Positions 3,165 through 20,606 of a stretch of DNA of 22,959 nt are shown here, one piece after another. Within the stretch, counting starts at the first letter, position 1. Every line of letters begins with the position of its first letter. The position numbers were made by a program, and so were the translations under genes. This DNA comes from a virus. Taxonomy: Duplodnaviria > Heunggongvirae > Uroviricota > Caudoviricetes. The stretch lies in IMG/VR virus record IMGVR_UViG_2645728010_000003. One strand, written 5' to 3'. The notes beneath the pieces were generated by a model. The model was given only the letters and a program-made list of their open reading frames with translations. It ran no database searches and was not told the DNA's origin.

Positions 3165-3565
3165 TCATTCCATTTCGAAATCATCAATCTTCACTTCAAG
3201 CTCCAGACTGGTCGTAAAACCGTTATCCGGGCTGACAGTATGCGTCAGGGTGGTAATAGTCCATTCCGCATCATCTATCGGCTGTTTAAAGCCACTGACT
3301 TTCACTGGCATTTCCGTGTAGAGATCTGCCCGCCCTTCCGCCAGTTGTAGCGAGAATGACGCAACGCCGCGTTGCAGGCGTTCCCACTGCATTTTCGCCG
3401 CTCGTTCGGCGTTGCTCCGGTTGGCATAAGTGCGATTAAGTACCAGCACGTTTTCATCCGTACCCACCAGGTAATCGCCCTGCTTCGCTTCCGGCTCTTT
3501 CTTCTGCTTCTTAGTTCTGCGCTTACGCTTCACCGTGGTGCTTTCTTTCTTCGCAGGTTCGCGGG
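3165..3565 (-). pseudogene. D: C-terminal remnant of P2 gpD-like tail protein
   Basis: C-terminal residues (NAERAAKMQWERLQRGVASFS ... LELEVKIDDFEME) resemble the gpD C-terminus; only about 130 codons remain, with no native start. Confidence 0.7.
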
Positions 3566-3811
3566 TAACTCTTCTATCAGCGTAACAAGATGCCGCATAC
3601 TGCGCCCCAACCTGTCCAGCTTCCAGACAACCAGCGTGTCTCCTGCCGATAGTGTCCTGAGCAGTTTTTTCAGCCCCGGTCTGTCGGACTTAGTGCCGCT
3701 GATTTTATCCTCAAAAATCCGCTCACATCCCGCGCAGTTCAGCGCACTACGTTGCAAATCGGTGTTCTGGTCATTTGTTGACACGCGTACATAGCCAATA
3801 AGCATGATCAT
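3530..3811 (-). pseudogene. pin: Pin/Gin/Hin-family serine invertase, N-terminal fragment only
   Basis: MLIGYVRVSTNDQNTDLQ catalytic-Ser motif and resolvase core up to about residue 82, then unrelated residues and a stop; the C-terminal HTH domain is missing. Confidence 0.75.
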
Positions 3812-9537: not shown

Positions 9538-10344
9538 ATGAGTGTTATGAATCCAATAAGTTCTAATATATTTAATGCTGAATTTTTAAACACCCCGGCA
9601 GCGGCACTTGCCGCATGGATTTCCATTATTGGAGCTGTTATAACTTTGGTGACGATAGTTATAAGAGCACTATTCAAATATAGAAAATCTCATGATGTAA
9701 TTTTGAAAAAATCAGGAATACCTGCGTTTATATTAAATTTTTTTCTTATACGAATATCATTAAAAAGGCTGCCTACTATCACATGGGCTGAAAAATCAAT
9801 CACGGTTCTCTTTTCACTTCTTTTTTTGTGTGCAATTTATATTTTTGGTCCAGTTTTCATCCAAGCCATTAGAACCCCACCAAATAGCACATTGCTTTAT
9901 TGGATAAAGTCCGGTGAATCATTTTATATGTCAAAAAAACTGGCGACTGCAGCTACAATATTAACCACTCCTGATTGGGAAATATCAAAAGATGATTGCG
10001 AAGAGTCATCCTCTGCCAGTACAGAGAAGTACAAATCATTAACTATCGAACATAAAGAAATTCTTTGTAAACTACTAACCACTGATGAAGGGAATACTTA
10101 CATTGATGAAGAAGTCAAGAATTTCGTTAAAGACAAATTCTTTATCTATTCCTTTGCCCCAACAACCATATTTATTCTATTATGGATTTCTTTGGGTTTT
10201 ATACTGACCATTCACTATTCTAAAAAAGTTAGGAAATATATTCTGACTGAACAAAAAAATGCAATTCATTGGGCATATGGTGAATTCAAGACAGAAGGAA
10301 TCTATTCAATATATCACGAGTTAGAACGTAAGACTCACCATTAA
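9538..10344 (+). CDS. AT-rich moron: polytopic membrane protein of unknown function
   Basis: 268 aa, about 4 predicted TM helices plus a charged soluble domain; AGGTGGA Shine-Dalgarno 5 nt upstream; low GC against a GC-rich late operon; opposite strand to flanking V and S. Confidence 0.7.
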   Translation: MSVMNPISSNIFNAEFLNTPAAALAAWISIIGAVITLVTIVIRALFKYRKSHDVILKKSGIPAFILNFFLIRISLKRLPTITWAEKSITVLFSLLFLCAIYIFGPVFIQAIRTPPNSTLLYWIKSGESFYMSKKLATAATILTTPDWEISKDDCEESSSASTEKYKSLTIEHKEILCKLLTTDEGNTYIDEEVKNFVKDKFFIYSFAPTTIFILLWISLGFILTIHYSKKVRKYILTEQKNAIHWAYGEFKTEGIYSIYHELERKTHH

Positions 10345-11409: not shown

Positions 11410-11680
11410 GTTTCAGTTCCTCGATCCGGTGTTGTCGTTGTCTCAGCAGTGCACTGGTCTGTTCTGCTTCGGCATAGAGCCGCGCCTGCTCCCGGTTATT
11501 GGTTTCAGTCAGAATGGACAGGCTGATAAGCTGGCTGTTTTTCTTCGTCAGTTCCTGCGCTTTACTTTTCAGCGCCGCGCGCTGCGTTTCGATGGTGTGG
11601 CTGGCGCTGTTAAGCCGCCACGACTGCCAGCCCAGCGCAACGAGTGCCAGCGCCACCACTACTGCCAGCGCACGCGTCAT
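11252..11680 (-). CDS. lysB: i-spanin (LysB/Rz-like)
   Basis: N-terminal TM helix then coiled-coil periplasmic region; 142 aa. Confidence 0.7.
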   Translation of the reverse strand: MTRALAVVVALALVALGWQSWRLNSASHTIETQRAALKSKAQELTKKNSQLISLSILTETNNREQARLYAEAEQTSALLRQRQHRIEELKRENEDLRRWADTPLPADIIRLRERPALTGGTAYRQWLSASDAVSAGSGNAAH

Positions 11681-11816
11681 AGTCCAGCTCCTTTAAGGCA
11701 CCAGGCCATCTCCCGCGCACGGCGGTTATCCAGCCCCTGATTAAACACACCTTTTACATAAACCCAGCGCGGCAACTGTCGGCACGCATCTGCCCAGCGC
11801 CGCTGATTGAGCAATT

Positions 11817-12569
11817 TCACCAGTGTGGAACTACAGGCATTGCCCGTTGCTGCTTCTGCAGAGCAGACTCCAGTTCAGACAGGCGTTCTTCCTGCTCAGA
11901 CAGAGATTTTTCGGTTCGCGCGCTCAGGTTTTGCTGCTCAGTGGCGACCAGCTCCACGGCCTTATGCACATCAGAGAACCGGGCGTCATCGGACTGCTCT
12001 TTTTTGGTGAACAGCGCCGTGACGCGGGAAAACAGGGACGGTTTGTCGTCCTGGACTTCCTCCAGTTCGATCACCGTTTCCTCTGCAGCGGTAAAGAGAT
12101 TGGCAGGATTCTGCTTGCGGTTTGCCAGCGGGTTATGGGCTGCACTGGCGCTGAATGTCAGCATTTCAGTGCCCAGACTGGCAGGGTCATCAGTGGCAGC
12201 CAGGCCGACCAGGTAGGCTTTGCCCGTATCAGCGAACTTCGGGCTGACTTCCATAGAGGTGAATAATTTCTGGCCTTTTTTCACCAGTTCCACCAGGGAC
12301 TCCGTTGGCTCAACGTCGGCATACAGCGCCATCTTGCCTGCCAGCGGACCTTCCGTGATTTCCTCAGCAAACAGCGCCGTCACCTTGCCGTAGCGGTTAA
12401 AGGTGCTGTCCGGCAGATAAGACTTGATGTGCTCAAGGTTAATCAGCGCGGTATACACCGCCGGGTTGTAGCTGGCTGCCATCTGTTCCAGCCATTCACG
12501 CTGGATTTCGCGTCCGTCGGTGGTGGCACCTTCCACCCCGATGCGAAAACGCTTTGCTTTCACTGTCAT
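11817..12569 (-). CDS. O: Capsid scaffold protein (gpO-like), C-terminally truncated
   Basis: RFRIGVEG ... INLEH ... YLVGLAATDDPASLGTE motifs of gpO; about 30 aa shorter than P2 O, and 137 bp from lysB with N, M, L, X, Y, K and lysA absent. Confidence 0.85.
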   Translation of the reverse strand: MTVKAKRFRIGVEGATTDGREIQREWLEQMAASYNPAVYTALINLEHIKSYLPDSTFNRYGKVTALFAEEITEGPLAGKMALYADVEPTESLVELVKKGQKLFTSMEVSPKFADTGKAYLVGLAATDDPASLGTEMLTFSASAAHNPLANRKQNPANLFTAAEETVIELEEVQDDKPSLFSRVTALFTKKEQSDDARFSDVHKAVELVATEQQNLSARTEKSLSEQEERLSELESALQKQQRAMPVVPHW

Positions 12570-12711: not shown

Positions 12712-14478
12712 ATGAACACCACACTGACACCCGCAGATCTCGATCCCCGTCGGCAGGCCATGCTGCTGTACTTTCAGGGATACCGCGTAGCCCGCATTGC
12801 TGAAATGCTGGGCGAGAAAGTTGCAACCGTTCACAGCTGGAAAAAACGCGACAAGTGGGGTGACTATGGGCCGCTGGATCAGATGCAGCTCACCACCGCC
12901 GCACGCTACTGCCAGCTCATTATGAAGGAGCACAAAGAAGGGAAAGATTTCAAAGAGATTGACCTGCTGGCGCGCCAGTCGGAGCGCCATGCGCGGATCG
13001 GCAAGTTTAACAATGGCGGCAACGAAGCCGACTTAAACCCTAACGTCGCCAACCGCAACAAAGGCCCGCGTCGTCAGCCGGAAAAGAACGTTTTCACCGA
13101 TGAACAGATTGAGAAGCTGGAAGAAATCTTCCATTCCTCCATGTTCAACTACCAGCGCCACTGGTGGGAAGCCGGAAAAACCAACCGCATCCGCAACCTG
13201 CTGAAGTCACGCCAGATCGGCGCGACCTTCTATTTTGCCCGTGAAGCCCTGATTGACGCCCTGCTAACCGGGCGTAACCAGATTTTCCTTTCCGCCAGCA
13301 AGGCACAGGCCCACGTCTTTAAGCAGTACATCATCGACTTCGCCAAAGAAGTGGAGGTGGAGCTGAAAGGCGATCCGATAGTGCTTCCTAACGGGGCCAC
13401 GCTGTACTTCCTCGGCACCAATGCCCGCACGGCCCAGAGTTACCACGGCAACCTGTATCTGGATGAATATTTCTGGATACCGAAATTCCAAGAGCTGCGC
13501 AAAGTGGCTTCCGGTATGGCTATTCACAAAAAATGGCGACAAACCTATTTTTCCACGCCATCCAGCCTGACACACAGTGCTTATCCGTTCTGGTCCGGTG
13601 CGCTGTTCAACCGTGGGCGCAACAAAGCCGACAAGGTGGACATCGACCTGTCCCACAGCAATCTGGCCCCCGGCCTGCTGTGCACAGACGGGCAATACCG
13701 CCAGATAGTCACCGTGGAAGATGCGGTGCGCGGCGGCTGTAACCTGTTCGACCTCGACCAGCTACGCATGGAGTACAGCCCGGACGAATACCAGAACCTG
13801 CTGATGTGCGAGTTCGTGGACGATCTCGCGTCCGTGTTCCCGCTCAGCGAGCTGCAAGCGTGCATGGTGGACAGTTGGGAAATCTGGACCGACTTTCATG
13901 CACTGGCCCTGCGCCCGTTTGGCTGGCGCGAAGTGTGGATCGGTTATGACCCGGCAAAAGGTACGCAGAACGGCGACAGTGCCGGATGCGTGGTGGTGGC
14001 ACCGCCAGCCGTGCCGGGTGGTAAGTTCCGCATTCTTGAGCGTCACCAGTGGCGCGGGATGGACTTCCGCGCCCAGGCTGACGCCATCAAAAAACTGACC
14101 GAGCAGTACAACGTGACCTACATCGGCATCGACTCGACAGGTGTCGGCCACGGGGTTTACGAGAACGTGAAAGCGTTTTTTCCAGCCGTCCGGGAGTTTG
14201 TCTACAACCCCAACGTTAAAAACGCCCTGGTACTCAAGGCCTACGACATTATCAGTCACCGTCGTCTGGAGTTTGACGCCGGACACACCGACATAGCGCA
14301 GTCATTTATGGCAATCCGTCGCGCCACCACCGCCAGCGGCAACCGCCCAACCTATGAAGCCAGCCGCAGCGAAGAAGCCAGCCATGCCGATCTGGCCTGG
14401 GCAACAATGCACGCACTGTTTAACGAACCGCTGCAGGGCGAGTCCGCCAATACCAGCAATATTGTGGAGATTTTTTGA
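12712..14478 (+). CDS. P: Terminase large subunit (gpP-like)
   Basis: 588 aa; P2 gpP-like sequence with ATPase and nuclease regions. Confidence 0.92.
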   Translation: MNTTLTPADLDPRRQAMLLYFQGYRVARIAEMLGEKVATVHSWKKRDKWGDYGPLDQMQLTTAARYCQLIMKEHKEGKDFKEIDLLARQSERHARIGKFNNGGNEADLNPNVANRNKGPRRQPEKNVFTDEQIEKLEEIFHSSMFNYQRHWWEAGKTNRIRNLLKSRQIGATFYFAREALIDALLTGRNQIFLSASKAQAHVFKQYIIDFAKEVEVELKGDPIVLPNGATLYFLGTNARTAQSYHGNLYLDEYFWIPKFQELRKVASGMAIHKKWRQTYFSTPSSLTHSAYPFWSGALFNRGRNKADKVDIDLSHSNLAPGLLCTDGQYRQIVTVEDAVRGGCNLFDLDQLRMEYSPDEYQNLLMCEFVDDLASVFPLSELQACMVDSWEIWTDFHALALRPFGWREVWIGYDPAKGTQNGDSAGCVVVAPPAVPGGKFRILERHQWRGMDFRAQADAIKKLTEQYNVTYIGIDSTGVGHGVYENVKAFFPAVREFVYNPNVKNALVLKAYDIISHRRLEFDAGHTDIAQSFMAIRRATTASGNRPTYEASRSEEASHADLAWATMHALFNEPLQGESANTSNIVEIF

Positions 14479-15503
14479 TGGGAAAGAGTAAGAAAAACCG
14501 CGCTGCGGCGACGAACCAGATCCAGCATAAAAACCAAACTTCAGCCGAAGCATTCAGCTTCGGTGATCCCGTTCCTGTTCTGGACCGCCGCGAATTACTG
14601 GACTATGTGGAATGCGTAAAGATGGACCGCTGGTATGAGCCACCCGTAAGTTTTGACGGACTGGCGCGAACATTCCGCGCCGCCGTACACCACAGTTCAC
14701 CGATTGCAGTAAAGTGCAACATTCTGACCAGCACCTACATCCCTCACCCGCTGCTCAGCCAGCAGGCGTTTTCACGTTTTGTGCAGGACTATCTGGTTTT
14801 TGGTAACGCCTACCTGGAGAAACGCACGAACCGATTCGGTGAAGTTATCGCCCTTGAGCCTGCGCTGGCAAAATACACCCGACGCGGATTAGACCTAGAT
14901 ACCTACTGGTTTGTGCAATACGGCATGACCACGCAGCCGTATCAGTTCACGAAAGGCAGCATTTTTCATCTGATGGAACCGGACATCAACCAGGAGATCT
15001 ACGGCCTGCCCGGCTATCTTTCTGCCATCCCATCCGCCCTGCTCAACGAGTCCGCCACGCTGTTCCGCCGAAAGTATTACATTAACGGTAGTCATGCAGG
15101 CTTCATCATGTACATGACCGATGCCGCGCAGAACCAGGAAGATGTGAACAACCTCCGCAATGCGATGAAAAGTGCCAAAGGCCCTGGCAACTTCCGCAAC
15201 CTGTTTATGTACTCGCCTAATGGTAAAAAAGACGGACTTCAGATTATCCCGTTGTCAGAAGTCACAGCGAAGGATGAGTTTCTGAATATCAAGAACGTGA
15301 GCCGTGATGACATGATGGCGGCACACCGCGTGCCGCCGCAAATGATGGGAATTATGCCTAATAATGTCGGGGGGTTTGGGGATGTGGAGAAGGCTAGCAA
15401 GGTATTCGTAAGAAACGAATTGATGCCCCTGCAGAAACGATTGCAGGAACTAAATAACTGGTTGGACGAAGAAGTGCTCAATTTTTCAACCTATGAGCTT
15501 TAG
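14475..15503 (+). CDS. Q: Portal protein (gpQ-like)
   Basis: 342 aa; gpQ-like sequence; overlaps the P stop by 4 nt. Confidence 0.92.
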   Translation: MMGKSKKNRAAATNQIQHKNQTSAEAFSFGDPVPVLDRRELLDYVECVKMDRWYEPPVSFDGLARTFRAAVHHSSPIAVKCNILTSTYIPHPLLSQQAFSRFVQDYLVFGNAYLEKRTNRFGEVIALEPALAKYTRRGLDLDTYWFVQYGMTTQPYQFTKGSIFHLMEPDINQEIYGLPGYLSAIPSALLNESATLFRRKYYINGSHAGFIMYMTDAAQNQEDVNNLRNAMKSAKGPGNFRNLFMYSPNGKKDGLQIIPLSEVTAKDEFLNIKNVSRDDMMAAHRVPPQMMGIMPNNVGGFGDVEKASKVFVRNELMPLQKRLQELNNWLDEEVLNFSTYEL

Positions 15504-15511
15504 TTTTAAAA

Positions 15512-15531
15512 CGAAGACCATTAGGTCTTCG
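15512..15531. terminator. Bidirectional hairpin shared by convergent Q and retron RT
   Basis: cgaagacc-atta-ggtcttcg with T-rich flanks on both strands; the RT stop codon lies in the loop. Confidence 0.6.
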
Positions 15532-16483
15532 CTTTATTTAAAGGGTTCTTTCCATATTTTTTTTCTAATTTGCTAATATAAGTTATTAATCTCCTATGGC
15601 TTTTTGAATCCACACTTAAAATAAATGACAACCATCCCCTAACGTGTTCTATCTCAGAAGACTTACCGCAAAATATATGATGTATCTTTGCTCTAATTTC
15701 TTTATATTTTTCTCTACCTATCCCAACTTTCTCTTGTGAAATAACTAAACCTGTAACTTTCCTCTGACTACGAGGCCCACTAATACAAGTTTTTTTTGAG
15801 TTAATAACCAATCCTTCACTTGGGATTATAGAAAATAAAAAATCACGTGCTTTAACAACCTTTTTCATAGACTGTGCAGATAAGGTGAGATCATCGGCAT
15901 ATCTCGTATATATCAAGCCCCGACTACCTGCATAACCCTGAATACGATAATCAAGTTTAGAACATATTAGATTAGCTAATTTAGGTGATGATGGAGCACC
16001 TTGTGGTAGCAGATTTTTATAACAACATATTTTTGTCAAAACTGAAGATATTAGTCGATTATAACCAAGAGAATGGAACACTCCAAAAACTTTGTTAGCA
16101 GTTAAACTTGGGAAAAAATCCTCCAAATCAATATTCAGTATAAAGTTTGCCCCAATATGCGGGGTAGCATTATTCAAAATAGATTGGTGCTTTTCAAATC
16201 CAATAGAAAAAGGAGATGACGACAGTTTATCTAAAATGTTACGTAGAACCCATCCTTGTAAGGCTTTAAGTTCTCGAGAAGGTTGGTAAATGGTTCTCAT
16301 TCTCTTCTCTGGGCCTTTCTTTTCTACAGTGTAGATCCTATAGCGAAAATCAGCTGTATAGATTAACAACCGAAGTGTTTCAACAGATATGCGAGTCGCC
16401 TTAGACATGTCATGCAAATTGTTCATGACAGGTAGGCCGAGATTTCTCAATCTAAAAGTGTTCAAATATTCAGCGGATTTCAT
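15521..16483 (-). CDS. ret: Retron reverse transcriptase (Ec86/Eco1-type)
   Basis: 320 aa; RT motifs including LPQGAPSSP and YTRYADDLTLS (YADD box); directly downstream of the msr-msd locus; matches my memory of the Ec86 RT. Confidence 0.95.
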   Translation of the reverse strand: MKSAEYLNTFRLRNLGLPVMNNLHDMSKATRISVETLRLLIYTADFRYRIYTVEKKGPEKRMRTIYQPSRELKALQGWVLRNILDKLSSSPFSIGFEKHQSILNNATPHIGANFILNIDLEDFFPSLTANKVFGVFHSLGYNRLISSVLTKICCYKNLLPQGAPSSPKLANLICSKLDYRIQGYAGSRGLIYTRYADDLTLSAQSMKKVVKARDFLFSIIPSEGLVINSKKTCISGPRSQRKVTGLVISQEKVGIGREKYKEIRAKIHHIFCGKSSEIEHVRGWLSFILSVDSKSHRRLITYISKLEKKYGKNPLNKAKT

Positions 16484-16489
16484 GAAAGT

Positions 16490-16658
16490 TGCGCACCCTT
16501 ACGTCAGAAAAAACGGGTTTCCTGGTTGGCTCGGAGAGCATCAGGCGATGCTCTCCGTTCCAACAAGGAAAACAGACAGTAACTCAGATTCAATGCAGGA
16601 TGCCGAAACAACATCCAGAGGTTGACCTTAATGATAAACCTCTCGCTAAGGGTGCGCA
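16490..16658 (-). ncRNA. msr-msd: Retron msr-msd non-coding RNA (msDNA template)
   Basis: Flanked by 12-bp inverted repeats a2 (16490-16501, TGCGCACCCTTA) and a1 (16647-16658); internal perfect 10-bp hairpin at 16533-16556; minus-strand sequence matches what I recall of Ec86 msr/msd. Confidence 0.9.
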
Positions 16659-17569
16659 TACGGAATCTTATCATAGTTAAATGTTGATTTTCTACGGTTT
16701 TCAAAATTCATAATCTCAAGCCGCAATCGGTCAAGTGTCTTTCTATCAAAGACGCTCCTAACATAGCTAGCCCCCAAAGCAGTGACCTGATAACCATCAG
16801 TCATTTGAAGTATTTTTCGTTCATTTATTAGACGAGAAACAACGGATCTAACAATAATTTTAGATAAAACATCATCTTGCTTTATCGCTTTAAAAGCTAG
16901 TTCACACAGTGTGCGGTAGTTGACACTATCCAGTAAATAGATACAAGGCAATAGAAACCGCTCTGCGTATAATATATTTCCAATATCTTTTGATACTTTA
17001 TTTTCTTTCCTAACCTTCTTAATAGATGCCATTAATTTTTTATATAATCGTAATTTTCTGGCAACATCAATAGATGAATCACACATTTCTTTTAGTTCAT
17101 TTGAACTACAACGCAAAACAGATTTTGAATTAAACTTACGCAACAGGCGAACAGGACCATAGTTAATAAAGCTACGTTTTGATTTAAATTTTGCATCTTG
17201 AATGCAAATCAACTTTCTCCTTAAGTTTTCATTATTAGAGAACGCACCAAGCTCTGTGAAAGACCCCGGACTTTCAGGAAATAAAATTATTACATCGACA
17301 GCTTCAGCCAGAATATTTTCTAAACTTAAAAGGCTATGCTGCCCTTGACCAGCCAAAAGATCATCAAATAGATCTTCTGGATAAAATATATCAACATCAC
17401 TGAACTTTGCTAAAAATTGTGATAATTGATGACGCCAAGATTGATGATTAGCAACGTCACCACCACATAGAAAAATGGTTATTTTAATATTAGCTCCTCG
17501 ATAGAAGCCTTTCTTTGTGAGATGTCCTATAAGCTGTTGTTGCTGCTCATCGGTAAATTTTTTATTCAT
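16646..17569 (-). CDS. Retron effector, nucleoside 2-deoxyribosyltransferase-like N-terminal domain plus C-terminal domain
   Basis: 307 aa directly upstream of msr; Rossmann-like IFLCGG ... ILFPESPGSFTELG pattern; stop codon overlaps a1; GGGGAG RBS. Confidence 0.8.
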   Translation of the reverse strand: MNKKFTDEQQQQLIGHLTKKGFYRGANIKITIFLCGGDVANHQSWRHQLSQFLAKFSDVDIFYPEDLFDDLLAGQGQHSLLSLENILAEAVDVIILFPESPGSFTELGAFSNNENLRRKLICIQDAKFKSKRSFINYGPVRLLRKFNSKSVLRCSSNELKEMCDSSIDVARKLRLYKKLMASIKKVRKENKVSKDIGNILYAERFLLPCIYLLDSVNYRTLCELAFKAIKQDDVLSKIIVRSVVSRLINERKILQMTDGYQVTALGASYVRSVFDRKTLDRLRLEIMNFENRRKSTFNYDKIPYAHP

Positions 17570-17642
17570 AATCTCCCCGCTTTTTTTTCTACTTTATACA
17601 TCAAGTTATGAATAGATCCAATCTCCATACCACATGGCGCGC

Positions 17643-17662
17643 GCTCGTATCCCCGCCACGCC
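17643..17662 (-). other. cos-like remnant (13 of 19 nt of the remembered 186 cohesive end)
   Basis: Minus strand reads GGCGTGGCGGGGATACGAGC; the first 13 nt equal the 186 cos start as I remember it (GGCGTGGCGGGGAAAGCAT). Confidence 0.35.
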
Positions 17663-17684
17663 TGCCCGCTTTATGCAGTGGTTT

Positions 17685-17786
17685 TCATGCACATGCATAA
17701 CATGAGCAAAAGCCCGCCAGTTCTGGCGGATCTGAGCAAAGACGATCCTCAATCGATCATGCGATTTCATGCAGCATAGTCATGCA
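17685..17786. repeat. Cluster of five to six (T)CATGCA motifs
   Basis: Copies at about 17685, 17692, 17757, 17767 and 17780, plus variants; function unknown. Confidence 0.35.
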
Positions 17787-18041
17787 CTGTCAAGGAAGTG
17801 AAAATCCGTATCTGAATGGCCACTTGAAAAACGGATCATACGGGTTTACAAAGATGAATGTTCGCTGTGAACGGGAAGCGGAAGTTAACTTTCAGATAAC
17901 ATAATCCATATGCACGAGAACCTCTAAAATAGAATGGGACACCTAAGCGGGGTACTTACAACGATTCTTTCCATATTCACAGTTAACACTCTGTTTGGCG
18001 TATTTTTATTCAAATAGCAAACACCAATAAAAGGAGTTTCC

Positions 18042-18377
18042 ATGAACAATATTCCCCCTATACCACAGTTAGGAATTTATGTCTCAAAAATCGATCCCAC
18101 CCTACGTATCACTGTAACCGATGTTGATATTGTTGATGGTGAGGATGATTCTCCTGATGATGAATTGTTTTATTTAGTCCACTGGATCGAGGGGGAAGAT
18201 GAAAGTGATATGACAGCAATGGGATTTGAGCTAGACCCAGTAGAGTGGCAGGCTTTCGTTGAATCTGAGCAATTAGTGTTTGAGCGTGATCCGTACATGG
18301 ATTCAATCCCCGAAAATTCAAACTTGGCAAAGATTCGGGATTTTCTCATGAAGACTAAACAGAATGATCATTCGTAA
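18042..18377 (+). CDS. Strongly acidic small protein of unknown function
   Basis: 111 aa with 26 Asp/Glu against 7 Lys/Arg; AAGGAG RBS 6 nt upstream; only + strand gene in the A-to-Q interval. Confidence 0.6.
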   Translation: MNNIPPIPQLGIYVSKIDPTLRITVTDVDIVDGEDDSPDDELFYLVHWIEGEDESDMTAMGFELDPVEWQAFVESEQLVFERDPYMDSIPENSNLAKIRDFLMKTKQNDHS

Positions 18378-18569
18378 GTGTAAGCATCCATCAGGAAAAT
18401 GGTTTTGTAAGTGAATCATCAACTTTTAGAGAGTCTCAGACACTCCCACTTCTGCTTCTGACACAAAGCGGACGATCACTTATCAAAATAACCGCCCACC
18501 TTACGCCTTATTTCACTCATTGCCCAAACTAGCCCCCATCAGAATGAATCCTCCTGGGGGCAACATTTC

Positions 18570-18803
18570 TTAATGCAGCCAGCTGTCGTCCTCCCACACC
18601 TTCTGCATAATTTTCATCACTTGTTTTCTTTCTTCATCCAGTTGCAGTCCGGTTAGTTCCACACCGTTAGAGCTACCTTTGCGAATGCGAATTACCGTTT
18701 TGGGATACAGGGGGCGCAGATTGCGGTAAAGCTCGGATTCAAGGGCGTCCAGGGTAGACTGGCTAATCTTCTGCTCTTTATCGATCATTATTTCAATGCG
18801 CAT
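18570..18803 (-). CDS. DinI-family protein (Tum C-terminal-like)
   Basis: 77 aa from the internal Met with GAGGTGA RBS; MRIEIMIDKE ... LDALESEL ... QKVWEDDSW resembles DinI. Confidence 0.7.
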   Translation of the reverse strand: MRIEIMIDKEQKISQSTLDALESELYRNLRPLYPKTVIRIRKGSSNGVELTGLQLDEERKQVMKIMQKVWEDDSWLH

Positions 18804-19154: not shown

Positions 19155-20606
19155 TTAATACAGGTTCCGCCACTTATCATCTTCCTTCAGACGCTGGTTC
19201 CGATAGAAGATACGCAGGCCTGCTCCTGACGGAATACTGCCGCCGCGAAGGAGCAAATCGACTTCTTTCTCGCTGCCATCAAATCCCCTGGACTTCAGTT
19301 CATAGACGAGCTGCTGTCGCTGATGGTCTGTAATTCGCTGTTTGTAGTCTTTACGCCGTTTCGGTTTCACCTGGCGTAACCTTGCAGCCAGTTCCCGGCG
19401 CTCTTTTTTGCTCATACTGTGCAGGTAATTGTGCAACTCCTTGTCATTCATACGGGTAATATCCGTTCTGGAGTCCCCATCAGCTGATTTGTCTTTCCCT
19501 TGTTGGTTCAAATTTTCAGCAAGGGGACAGTTATTGCCACGAGTCCAAGGGGCGCAAGCGCCCTGGTCGGCTGCCGCCTCCTGAACGTCAACGGCCTTAC
19601 GAACCATTTTCCACTTCACCGCATGAGTGCAGATCTTGCCCTCTGCAATGGGTGACCAGATGCCATAAATACGAATACCGTGATCGCCATATGCGGTCGG
19701 TTCTTCGTTGATTTCATAAGCAGTTCTGATGAGGTGATATTTGCGGGGAACCAGTACGCCGCCCTGCTTCATGATGTAGGTGGCAAAACAACCAGCATCA
19801 GCAGCAGCCAGGATTGCATCAAGACGCGGGTTATCCAGTACCGGCGCACCTGCTTTTTTGTCACCCTGTTGCCTTGCCGCCTGACCAGCCAGCAATCGCA
19901 GTTCACGGTAAGCCTGACGCCCCGGAATGCCAAAGAAGCGGAATTGCTGAACACGATGCAGAGACGCCCAGGCATTAACGTATTCAGCGTTATCACGCAG
20001 GGATTTACCCGTTTCCTTGCTGATCTCCCCAGCCAGACCACGCCCGTCAATGTTCTTACTGATGTATTTCGCGATATAGCTTGTTGGCGTACCTTTGCGC
20101 GGGTTTATCAGCTCAGACTTAAAGCGTGGTCCCGTGTTATTGCCCAGCTCCTCGCGGTCTTCACGGATGGCAAACTTACGCAGTAATGCAGTGATGGCGC
20201 GGCGGTCTTTTTTACGCATGAAACACATGAGATGCCAGTGCACAGTACCGTCATGATGCGGCTCAGCTACCGCACCTGCAGCAACACGCCCGATCTCTGC
20301 GGTTGCACTCATGACGTAATGTGGCAGTTTCTCTTTTGCCACCTCATTAATCGGTACGCATGGCAGGCAGTGAATCTGAGCCAGAAAACCATCTACCAGC
20401 GTTGAATCTTCAGTCAGATCGGTAAGCAGCCAGATTTCTGGTGCGGTTAATAAATGAGGTTGCGCTGGGTTCAACTTGTTCCGCAGAATCTGCACATTCA
20501 TGCCAGCACGTTCTGCCAGTTGCACCAGGTTGTGGCGCAATGCGAATGCACGACAGGCTTCATCAAAATGTGGATGTTTGGAAACTTGGTAATCAAACAT
20601 GGTCAA
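19155..20606 (-). CDS. A: Chimeric ORF: CII-like N-terminus fused to a rolling-circle initiator (gpA-like) C-terminal part; probably a deletion product
   Basis: First ~115 aa resemble phage regulatory protein CII ([18 protein letters not shown] ... [24 protein letters not shown]); the rest carries HUH-like HWH and YIAKYISK tyrosine motifs; 483 aa, well short of an intact gpA. Confidence 0.75.

Follow-up and report, generated by a model that had tools for sequence, protein, structure and literature searches.

The window analysed here is the whole of a 22,959-nucleotide stretch of DNA from a virus of the Caudoviricetes (IMG/VR record IMGVR_UViG_2645728010_000003), and it is 100% identical to DNA of E. 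coli B, BL21 and REL606. The conserved phage backbone is represented by the gene for the terminase large subunit, a gpP homologue (12712–14478, + strand; Pfam Terminase_6N/6C/Terminase_5), whose DNA is 92–93% identical to that of the closest related phages and 84% identical to that of Fels-2, followed by the gene for the portal protein Q (gpQ, the homologue of 186 W; 14478–15503, + strand), which is delimited by Pfam Phage_portal, the RefSeq annotation and BLAST end-points. Next come the parts of a retron (15521–17569), a cos site with its cohesive end at 17644–17662, a DinI/Tum-like gene (18570–18803, − strand; Pfam DinI, phrog_189, RefSeq annotation), with which the conserved backbone resumes, and A′ (19155–20270). 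A first-pass annotation of the window had placed the retron between the portal gene and cos and had described it as convergent with Q, and both statements are correct, as Q lies on the + strand, with its stop codon at 15501–15503, and the effector, ncRNA and reverse transcriptase (RT) all lie on the − strand.

All of the parts that characterize a type II-A retron are present, namely a retron-clade RT, a cognate nucleoside-deoxyribosyltransferase (NDT)-like effector in the same operon and an adjacent msr-msd ncRNA with a1/a2 repeats and an msd stem-loop. The RT (320 residues; 15521–16483, − strand) matches the PADLOC model RT_II-A (E = 7e-128) and Pfam RVT_1, and aligns over its full length (residues 1–320) with the 'retron Ec86 RT' of PDB entries 7v9u, 7v9x and 8qbk (E = 5e-214). 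The effector, an NDT-like N-glycosidase of 307 residues (16646–17569, − strand), matches PADLOC NDT_II-A (E = 3e-94) and, over residues 1–307, the 'Retron Ec86 putative ribosyltransferase/DNA-binding protein' of PDB entries 7v9x_C and 8qbk (E = 1e-203). The msr-msd ncRNA (16490–16658, − strand) was delineated from its inverted repeats and its fold (−81 kcal/mol, z = −8.6). Its a1 and a2 segments form a perfect 12-nt inverted repeat (16490–16501 and 16647–16658), with a2 overlapping the effector stop codon (16646–16648), and the msd hairpin (25 nt, 16518–16571) contains a CCTGG Dcm motif at 16521–16525, which was the only such motif seen when the msd stem-loop region was inspected by eye, where no GATC was found. 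A gathering-threshold scan of Rfam returned no retron ncRNA family, RybB being the sole match. The Dcm motif in the Ec86 msd stem-loop, the operon order effector-ncRNA-rrt and the native host BL21(DE3) have been described previously (bioRxiv 10.1101/2023.08.16.553469), and branched msDNA and anti-phage activity are reported in the literature, including the same study, for this exact BL21(DE3) sequence. Identified from these matches, the retron is the well-studied Ec86 (Retron-Eco1, type II-A) of E. coli B/BL21.

Immediately beyond Q is the hairpin CGAAGACC-ATTA-GGTCTTCG (15512–15531), recognized by a terminator scan, by folding and by its inverted repeat. Its stem consists of 8 G+C-rich base pairs, or 13 if the flanking A-U pairs are counted, T-tracts are found on either side, the z-scores of the fold are −5.3 (+ strand) and −9.5 (− strand), and the RT stop codon (15521–15523) is within the loop. 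The hairpin had earlier been read as a terminator shared by Q and the retron; its structure agrees with this, and it would, as a candidate intrinsic terminator acting in both directions, end transcripts of Q on the + strand and of the retron operon on the − strand. BLAST end-points show that homology of Q with relatives carrying other cargo stops at 15433–15473, within the last 10–23 codons, and such relatives do not share either the hairpin or these last ∼10–23 codons. Hence the 'shared' terminator appears, from these comparisons, to belong to the cassette and to move with it, and not to be part of the phage backbone. At the other end of the operon, a weak candidate promoter for effector, ncRNA and RT was read directly from the sequence (TTGGAT, 17 nt, TATAAA; 17593–17621, − strand), with a Shine-Dalgarno sequence, GGGGAG, downstream at 17573–17578. 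Its −35 hexamer matches at only 3 of 6 positions and a consensus promoter scan missed it, and its function as a promoter is accordingly put forward as putative.

The cos core (17637–17662, − strand) is made up of a 19-nt cohesive end, GGCGTGGCGGGGATACGAG, which is the reverse complement of 17644–17662, and seven conserved bases, CGCGCGC. It had been noted as a 13/19 match to the cohesive end of phage 186 and as a cos-like remnant. The match to the 186 end, GGCGTGGCGGGGAAAGCAT, is real but was undercounted, as 15 of the 19 positions agree and the first 13 are contiguous, while the description as a remnant does not stand because the same 26-mer occurs as the cos of the Fels-2 group. It is found 26/26 in Fels-2, Cartapus, vB_EcoM-813R9, Klebsiella phage ST512-KPC3phi13.2 and an E. 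coli phage-like plasmid, and it corresponds to positions 1–26 of Salmonella phage SEN8, the record of which labels positions 1–19 (19/19) as 'putative cos site'. The proposed alignment to the cos regions of 186 and P2 was carried out and supports the homology, with 79% identity over 67 nt to the joined ends of 186 (E = 2e-11) and 75% identity to P2 (E = 8e-7). The site therefore has the 19-nt G+C-rich cohesive end and the conserved flanking packaging sequence of a P2/186-type cos. By its sequence it is an intact cos of the Fels-2/SEN8 type and not a degenerate 186 remnant. Cleavage at 17644–17662 would follow from the annotated 'putative' ends of SEN8 and Cartapus and from the homology to 186 and P2, rather than from end sequencing. 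The prophage is defective, O being fused to a lysozyme fragment and cII to A′, and the cos is thus functionally idle in E. coli B.

The cos core forms one edge of a conserved 'cos island' (17637–17788) on the right-arm side of cos, which is 85–90% identical to all relatives, with unalignable DNA on both flanks, and which keeps this level of identity in 56 phage records spanning at least 80% of its length. The island contains a hairpin at 17713–17730 (− strand), found by terminator scan and resembling the annotated t95b of 186, which would stop transcripts of the DinI/tum operon ahead of cos. Beyond the island, toward A and DinI, alignment boundaries define a second variable slot (17789–18559), with one ORF (18042–18377, + strand) encoding an acidic protein of 111 residues that falls in phrog_17127 ('unknown function') and has no Pfam or PADLOC match. 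The related phages have in common three conserved blocks, P/Q, the ∼150-bp cos island and DinI onward, which separate two independently variable slots, the contents of which are not shared.

The slot between Q and cos was compared among 56 species-level loci, where it is empty (148–249 bp) in nine and at least 800 bp in 45. In all 47 filled loci the distance from its left junction to the cos nick is exactly 26 bp, and conservation across these loci collapses at +27; in the window the retron cassette likewise ends 7 bp from the cos 19-mer (cargo junction 17637|17636). The cargo is diverse and defence-like, including bSEFIR, AbiL, AriA, PD-T4-9, Old-like, TIR and KAP proteins, and the ORFs are convergent with Q in 82 of 86 cases. 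The cassettes that were examined each come with a hairpin and a Q 3′ end of their own. The GC content of the Ec86 cassette is 0.32–0.35, against 0.53–0.60 for P/Q. No second retron RT was found in the 56 species-level slots, such that retrons are a minority cargo in this sample. The survey undercounts loci, however, because the strict cos regular expression missed Klebsiella phage 4LV2017, the cos island of which is found by BLAST, and because 24 of 80 loci lack the exact cos core. The Ec86 cassette itself occurs at the same junctions in four natural E. coli isolates. Three of them, 20A24, VG1046-3E9 and JNE082640, have full-length flanking genes (N capsid and gpA), whereas the capsid genes next to the cassette are fragmentary in FDAARGOS_433. 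Across cos, the contents of the second slot vary independently from isolate to isolate, and in FDAARGOS_433 that slot holds a three-gene PADLOC Hp1-Hp2-Hp3 set. The suggested comparison of A-to-Q intervals in related prophages thus showed the identical junctions occupied by different cargo or by a different retron. The first-pass annotation was also right to regard this as an expected place for defence cargo. The retron is between A and Q and directly beside cos, with conserved flanks enclosing unrelated contents that include empty states, as in the published defence hotspot between gpA and gpQ of P2-like phages (Rousset et al., 2022; PMC9122126), which has been catalogued over >18,000 E. coli loci.

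Three other readings of the locus were considered. In the first, the cos-like sequence would have arisen by chance or be a relic in decay, and the retron would have inserted into bacterial or prophage DNA with no connection to cos; both the limited identity to the 186 19-mer (15/19) and the heavy deletion of the prophage could be cited in its favour. This reading can be given next to no credence and is refuted by the complete identity of the 26-mer to the cos of viable phages, by the conservation of the island, by the sharp +27 junction common to the filled loci and by the chance expectation, which is 0.00 occurrences of the 26-mer in the window against the one observed (for a 12-mer of the cos core, 0.06 against one). 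The retron might instead be mobile in its own right, inserting by an RT-mediated or transposon-like route of the kind suggested for retrons early in the 1990s, and in favour of this the cassette encodes an RT and is foreign, AT-rich DNA whose boundaries are sharp. However, neither direct repeats nor terminal inverted repeats flank its junctions; a search of the cassette ends for target-site duplications and terminal repeats gave only short chance-level matches, which argues against transposition. The cassette moreover replaces ∼150 bp rather than inserting, the very same two junctions are used by cassettes that are not retrons and lack an RT, and retrons are stated to encode no mobility functions (PMC6868368). 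Self-mobilization is for these reasons considered very improbable.

The remaining alternative concerns the analogy that had been drawn with old and tin of P2. In its strongest form, the retron would be a direct positional replacement of these genes, occupying the same slot (the 'TO region', from gene A to cos). Both old/tin and the retron are indeed beside cos and within the gpA-gpQ interval, a single hotspot in Rousset et al. (PMC9122126). The P2 genes, however, are on the A side, old (31620–33380) and tin being upstream of cosR (33575–33593) with only 186 bp from cosL to Q, while the retron lies between cos and Q (14478–15503, 17644–17662 and 19155–20270 being the order of Q, cos and A′), outside the region of the right arm between gene A/orf91 and cos. 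The A-side slot (17789–18559) is a separate one with a different ORF, and the two vary independently among Ec86-bearing isolates. There is hence hardly any likelihood that the retron took the slot of old/tin, a reading refuted by the position of cos, and the analogy is valid for the interval and not for the exact slot because the two sets of genes are on opposite sides of cos.

Instead, the window almost certainly contains the native Ec86 locus in a defective 186/Fels-2-like (P2-family) prophage of E. coli B, with the retron as self-contained conversion cargo in a Q-cos slot whose contents would be exchanged by recombination. The AT-rich cassette of 2.2 kb would run from its own weak promoter through effector, msr-msd and RT to its own hairpin terminator, and would fill the slot between the 3′ end of Q and a position 26 bp into cos from its left end, in place of ∼150 bp of non-coding DNA (the tQ terminator and left-arm sequence) of the 'empty' relatives. 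As lysogenic-conversion cargo it would be expressed from the prophage, insulated upstream by the t95b-like terminator and downstream by the hairpin that would also end Q transcription. According to the literature on the same sequence, the RT copies msd into msDNA, and RT-msDNA and dimers of the NDT-like N-glycosidase effector form filaments in which the effector is kept inactive. Activation is reported to follow when the CCTGG of the msDNA stem-loop is methylated by a Dcm-type methyltransferase that a phage encodes; the effector then hydrolyses NAD(P)+ and depletes adenine nucleotides, and the infection is aborted. The idea that the prophage-borne Dam methylase of intact relatives self-triggers Ec86 was also considered; as noted above, inspection of the msd stem-loop region by eye showed CCTGG and no GATC. 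The mosaic boundaries suggest that P2-like phages swap the cassettes of this slot through recombination within the conserved sequences on either side, Q and the cos island, rather than by retron-driven transposition. Nothing was found that contradicts the native-locus explanation, several steps of which are deduced.

The placement of Ec86 between Q and cos is real but ordinary and already known, and it carries little weight as a discovery since its position next to cos has been in the literature since 1996. Ec86/Eco1 is the most widely used retron and the basis of retron recombineering, and it is seen here at its native locus in the most widely used expression strain. The value of the analysis is that of a positive control, in which a reader with the sequence only placed the retron, the convergent terminator and cos correctly and in the right biological context. 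The additions are modest, namely an intact cos of the Fels-2 type, two slots rather than one and a terminator linked to the cassette.

The location of Ec67 and Ec86 was published by Dodd and Egan (Virology 1996, 219:115; PMID 8623520), whose title, as given in the reference list of PMC6868368, places Ec86 between cos and a terminator of a 186-related prophage. As far as that title goes, the locus is the same with no substantive difference, and what the present analysis adds is the Fels-2/SEN8 type of the cos (26/26, against 15/19 for the 186 cohesive end) and the linkage of the hairpin terminator and the 3′ end of Q to the cassette. The hotspot of Rousset et al. (2022; see also PMC13586616) has the same locus definition, is beside cos and includes retrons among its cargo. 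There the interval is one hotspot, whereas here two slots flank a conserved 150-bp cos island. The slot pattern itself is seen in these comparisons. A further reading, that the published 'single' hotspot is two independently exchanging slots whose pattern reflects an exchange mechanism linked to cos ends or terminase, with transcription into cos selected against, is speculative and unlikely; much of the pattern is probably already covered by the cos-to-terminator replacement indicated in the title of Dodd and Egan (1996) and the cos-end recombination of Rousset et al. (2022). Like the retron, old/tin of P2 (the 'TO region') and orf97 of 186 are non-essential lysogenic-conversion or exclusion genes adjoining cos in the same phage family, although they are on the A (right-arm) side and Ec86 is on the Q (left-arm) side. 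The closest parallel in position is in the related Klebsiella phage 4LV2017, where a type II-A retron (RT and NDT-like effector) convergent with Q is in the same Q-cos slot, but its proteins match other II-A sub-models (RT PDLC02939 and NDT PDLC02928), its effector has 350 residues and its cassette DNA has no similarity to that of Ec86.

The block of about 2.2 kb that follows the portal gene Q contains every part of an Ec86 retron, in agreement with the first-pass annotation. These parts are, on the minus strand, a reverse transcriptase (RT; 15521-16483; PADLOC RT_II-A, 7e-128; Pfam RVT_1), an NDT-like effector (16646-17569; PADLOC NDT_II-A, 3e-94) and, between them, the msr-msd, with a perfect 12-nt inverted repeat (a1/a2, 16490-16501 and 16647-16658), a 25-nt msd stem-loop and a 175-nt transcript that folds at −81 kcal/mol (z = −8.6). 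The RT and effector are matched over their full length by PDB 'retron Ec86' chains (E = 5e-214 and 1e-203), and GC content is 0.32-0.35 in the cassette versus 0.53-0.60 in Q and the terminase gene P. The effector stop codon overlaps a2, which fits the 'effector-ncRNA-rrt genetic unit' of BL21(DE3) (10.1101/2023.08.16.553469).

Q (14478-15503, +) and the retron are convergent, as previously described, and are separated by a hairpin, CGAAGACC-ATTA-GGTCTTCG (15512-15531), which begins nine bases past the Q stop, is flanked by TTTTAAAA and CTTTATTT, and has the RT stop codon inside its loop. It is terminator-like by scan and much more stable than shuffled sequences on both strands (z = −5.3 and −9.5). 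The suggestion that the two share a terminator holds as to its position, and the hairpin may reasonably be regarded as a candidate for terminating transcription of both from either direction. In each of five aligned relatives the cassette comes with a hairpin of its own shortly after the Q stop.

On the other side of the retron is a cos site (17644-17662) that had been read as a cos-like remnant with a 13/19 match to the 186 cohesive end. Its reverse complement, GGCGTGGCGGGGATACGAG, is in fact identical at 15 of 19 positions, 13 of them contiguous, to the annotated 186 cohesive end (record positions 1-19, GGCGTGGCGGGGAAAGCAT), and alignment to the cos regions of both reference phages is significant, with 79% identity over 67 nt to the joined 186 ends (E = 2e-11) and 75% to P2 (E = 8e-7), the similarity continuing into the right arm. 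The 26-mer GGCGTGGCGGGGATACGAGCGCGCGC, expected 0.00 times by chance in the window, is found unchanged in Fels-2, phages vB_EcoM-813R9 and Cartapus, Klebsiella phage ST512-KPC3phi13.2 and an E. coli phage-plasmid, and makes up the first 26 positions of Salmonella phage SEN8, where 1-19 are recorded as a putative cos site. The site is therefore intact and belongs to the Fels-2 lineage, rather than being a decayed 186 cos, so that 'remnant' is to be withdrawn.

When the interval was compared by BLAST with five related phages and four E. coli isolates, three conserved blocks emerged: P/Q as far as 15433-15473, a 'cos island' (17637-17788), and DinI onward from 18560-18572. Between them lie two variable slots. 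The first, slot L, extends from the 3′ end of Q to cos+26 and holds the retron, and slot R (17789-18559) holds one strongly acidic 111-aa ORF (18042-18377, +) with a good SD (AAAGGAG), a match to phrog_17127 (unknown function) and none in Pfam or PADLOC. From its acidity one might speculate that it is a DNA-mimic or anti-defence protein. In the cos island a hairpin (17713-17730, −) lies where 186 has its terminator t95b, and it would shield the cassette from the DinI/tum operon.

A scan with the Q protein, using one genome per species, gave 80 loci; in 56 of them Q was followed by the exact cos core, and these were used to survey both slots. Slot L was 'empty' in nine (148-249 bp, comprising a tQ-like terminator and conserved left-arm sequence) and at least 800 bp in 45, and slot R reached 1 kb or more in 27 of 50. 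Nearly all slot-L ORFs were convergent with Q (82/86), while those of slot R were mixed (33 minus, 18 plus). Slot-L cargo matched a variety of defence families (bSEFIR, AbiL, AriA, PD-T4-9, PD-T7-4, Old-like, TIR, KAP NTPase, DUF4145 and others) and included no second RT; relatives thus carry alternative cargo, and also empty states, at the same junctions. Among 47 filled loci, the columns of the right arm and of the 19-mer apart from position 13 were conserved at 90% or more, as were six of the seven bases that follow, and conservation was at background by +28. The roughly 150 bp of the empty state are absent from the window, and therefore the cassette replaces this DNA rather than being inserted into it; no direct repeats flank the cassette.

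Of 5426 complete E. coli genomes, 48 carry the Ec86 cassette; about 44 are B-lineage laboratory strains and at least four are natural isolates, and in those four it has identical junctions. In three of the four the genes on either side, capsid N and gpA among them, are full length; FDAARGOS_433 is the exception, its adjacent capsid and head-completion genes being annotated as fragments. Isolates 20A24 and VG1046-3E9 have the 111-aa ORF together with Ec86, and slot R instead holds a 176-aa ORF in JNE082640 and three genes, a complete PADLOC Hp1/Hp2/Hp3 set (E < 1e-150), in FDAARGOS_433 (locus L097, 7376-10126). Since slot R differs among isolates with the same cassette, the two slots vary independently. 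In FDAARGOS_433 one cos site lies between two defence systems in one prophage, Ec86 on the Q side and Hp1-Hp2-Hp3 on the A side.

The window is the known defective P2-family prophage of E. coli B, on the basis of 100% identity over 4.5 kb around the retron to B-lineage chromosomes (BL21(DE3), REL606, C41/C43, NEB Express and others), the RefSeq gene order (portal protein, retron St85-family RT and effector, two hypothetical proteins, DinI-like protein, truncated replication endonuclease, truncated CII, CI, integrase), and the flank, where RybB sRNA (2700-2778, +; Rfam, 105 bits) has ybjL/grxA to its left. An ogr-like gene at the prophage end is about 80 bp from RybB, and hence the attachment site appears to be at or beside rybB. 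In one ORF (19155-20606, −) an N-terminal CII (CP76) domain runs on into the C-terminal part of replication protein A, with homology to intact gpA stopping at 20275, and so a deletion took out cII through the 5′ half of A; relatives whose A is intact have a Dam methylase or PAPS-reductase-like gene within this stretch. The prophage is incapable of replication. Two further deletions are seen: at ~11680-11850, where the O scaffold gene now adjoins a lysozyme fragment, N, M, L, X and holin are missing, and at 3165-3805, where truncated fragments of an invertase/recombinase gene and of a gpD-like gene are fused, tail sheath, tube and tape genes are missing; the cos is thus intact although the prophage can no longer make heads or tails. 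A DUF6216-family gene (9538-10344, +), with no PHROG match, lies between the virion-morphogenesis (S-like) and baseplate V genes, runs opposite to them, and is probably further cargo at a second insertion point within the tail module.

In published work on this same sequence, RT-msDNA assembles into filaments together with dimers of the effector, an NDT-like N-glycosidase (10.1101/2023.08.16.553469; PMC12673091, citing Carabias 2024, Wang 2022/2024). Methylation of CCTGG in the msDNA stem-loop (here 16521-16525) by a phage Dcm-type methyltransferase activates the effector, leading to NAD(P)+ hydrolysis/adenine-derivative depletion and abortive infection (10.1101/2023.08.16.553469; PMC12673091). 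Two Ec86 prophages with full-length flanking genes (loci L094, L096 (11063-11920)) carry a DNA adenine methylase gene beside A. The trigger of Ec86 is phage cytosine methylation of CCTGG, and no GATC was seen by eye in the msd stem-loop region, an absence that would avoid self-triggering.

A retron beside a prophage cos is an already known feature. Rousset et al. 2022 (PMC9122126) identified the gpA-gpQ interval next to cos as a hotspot for defence genes, which across 18,150 E. coli loci takes 1,650 arrangements, retrons included, and a 2026 paper reaffirmed this (PMC13586616). The cos-adjacent retron is confirmed and its interpretation as defence cargo is supported. The comparison with old and tin of P2 is valid for cargo in the A-cos-Q interval and wrong as to the side of cos, since in P2 these genes occupy the slot-R position, upstream of cosR, with just 186 bp from cosL to Q, and the retron in slot L is opposite them across cos. 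Phage 186 agrees with P2 here, with orf97 in slot R and a slot L of 176 bp. Klebsiella phage 4LV2017 carries in slot L a different type II-A retron.
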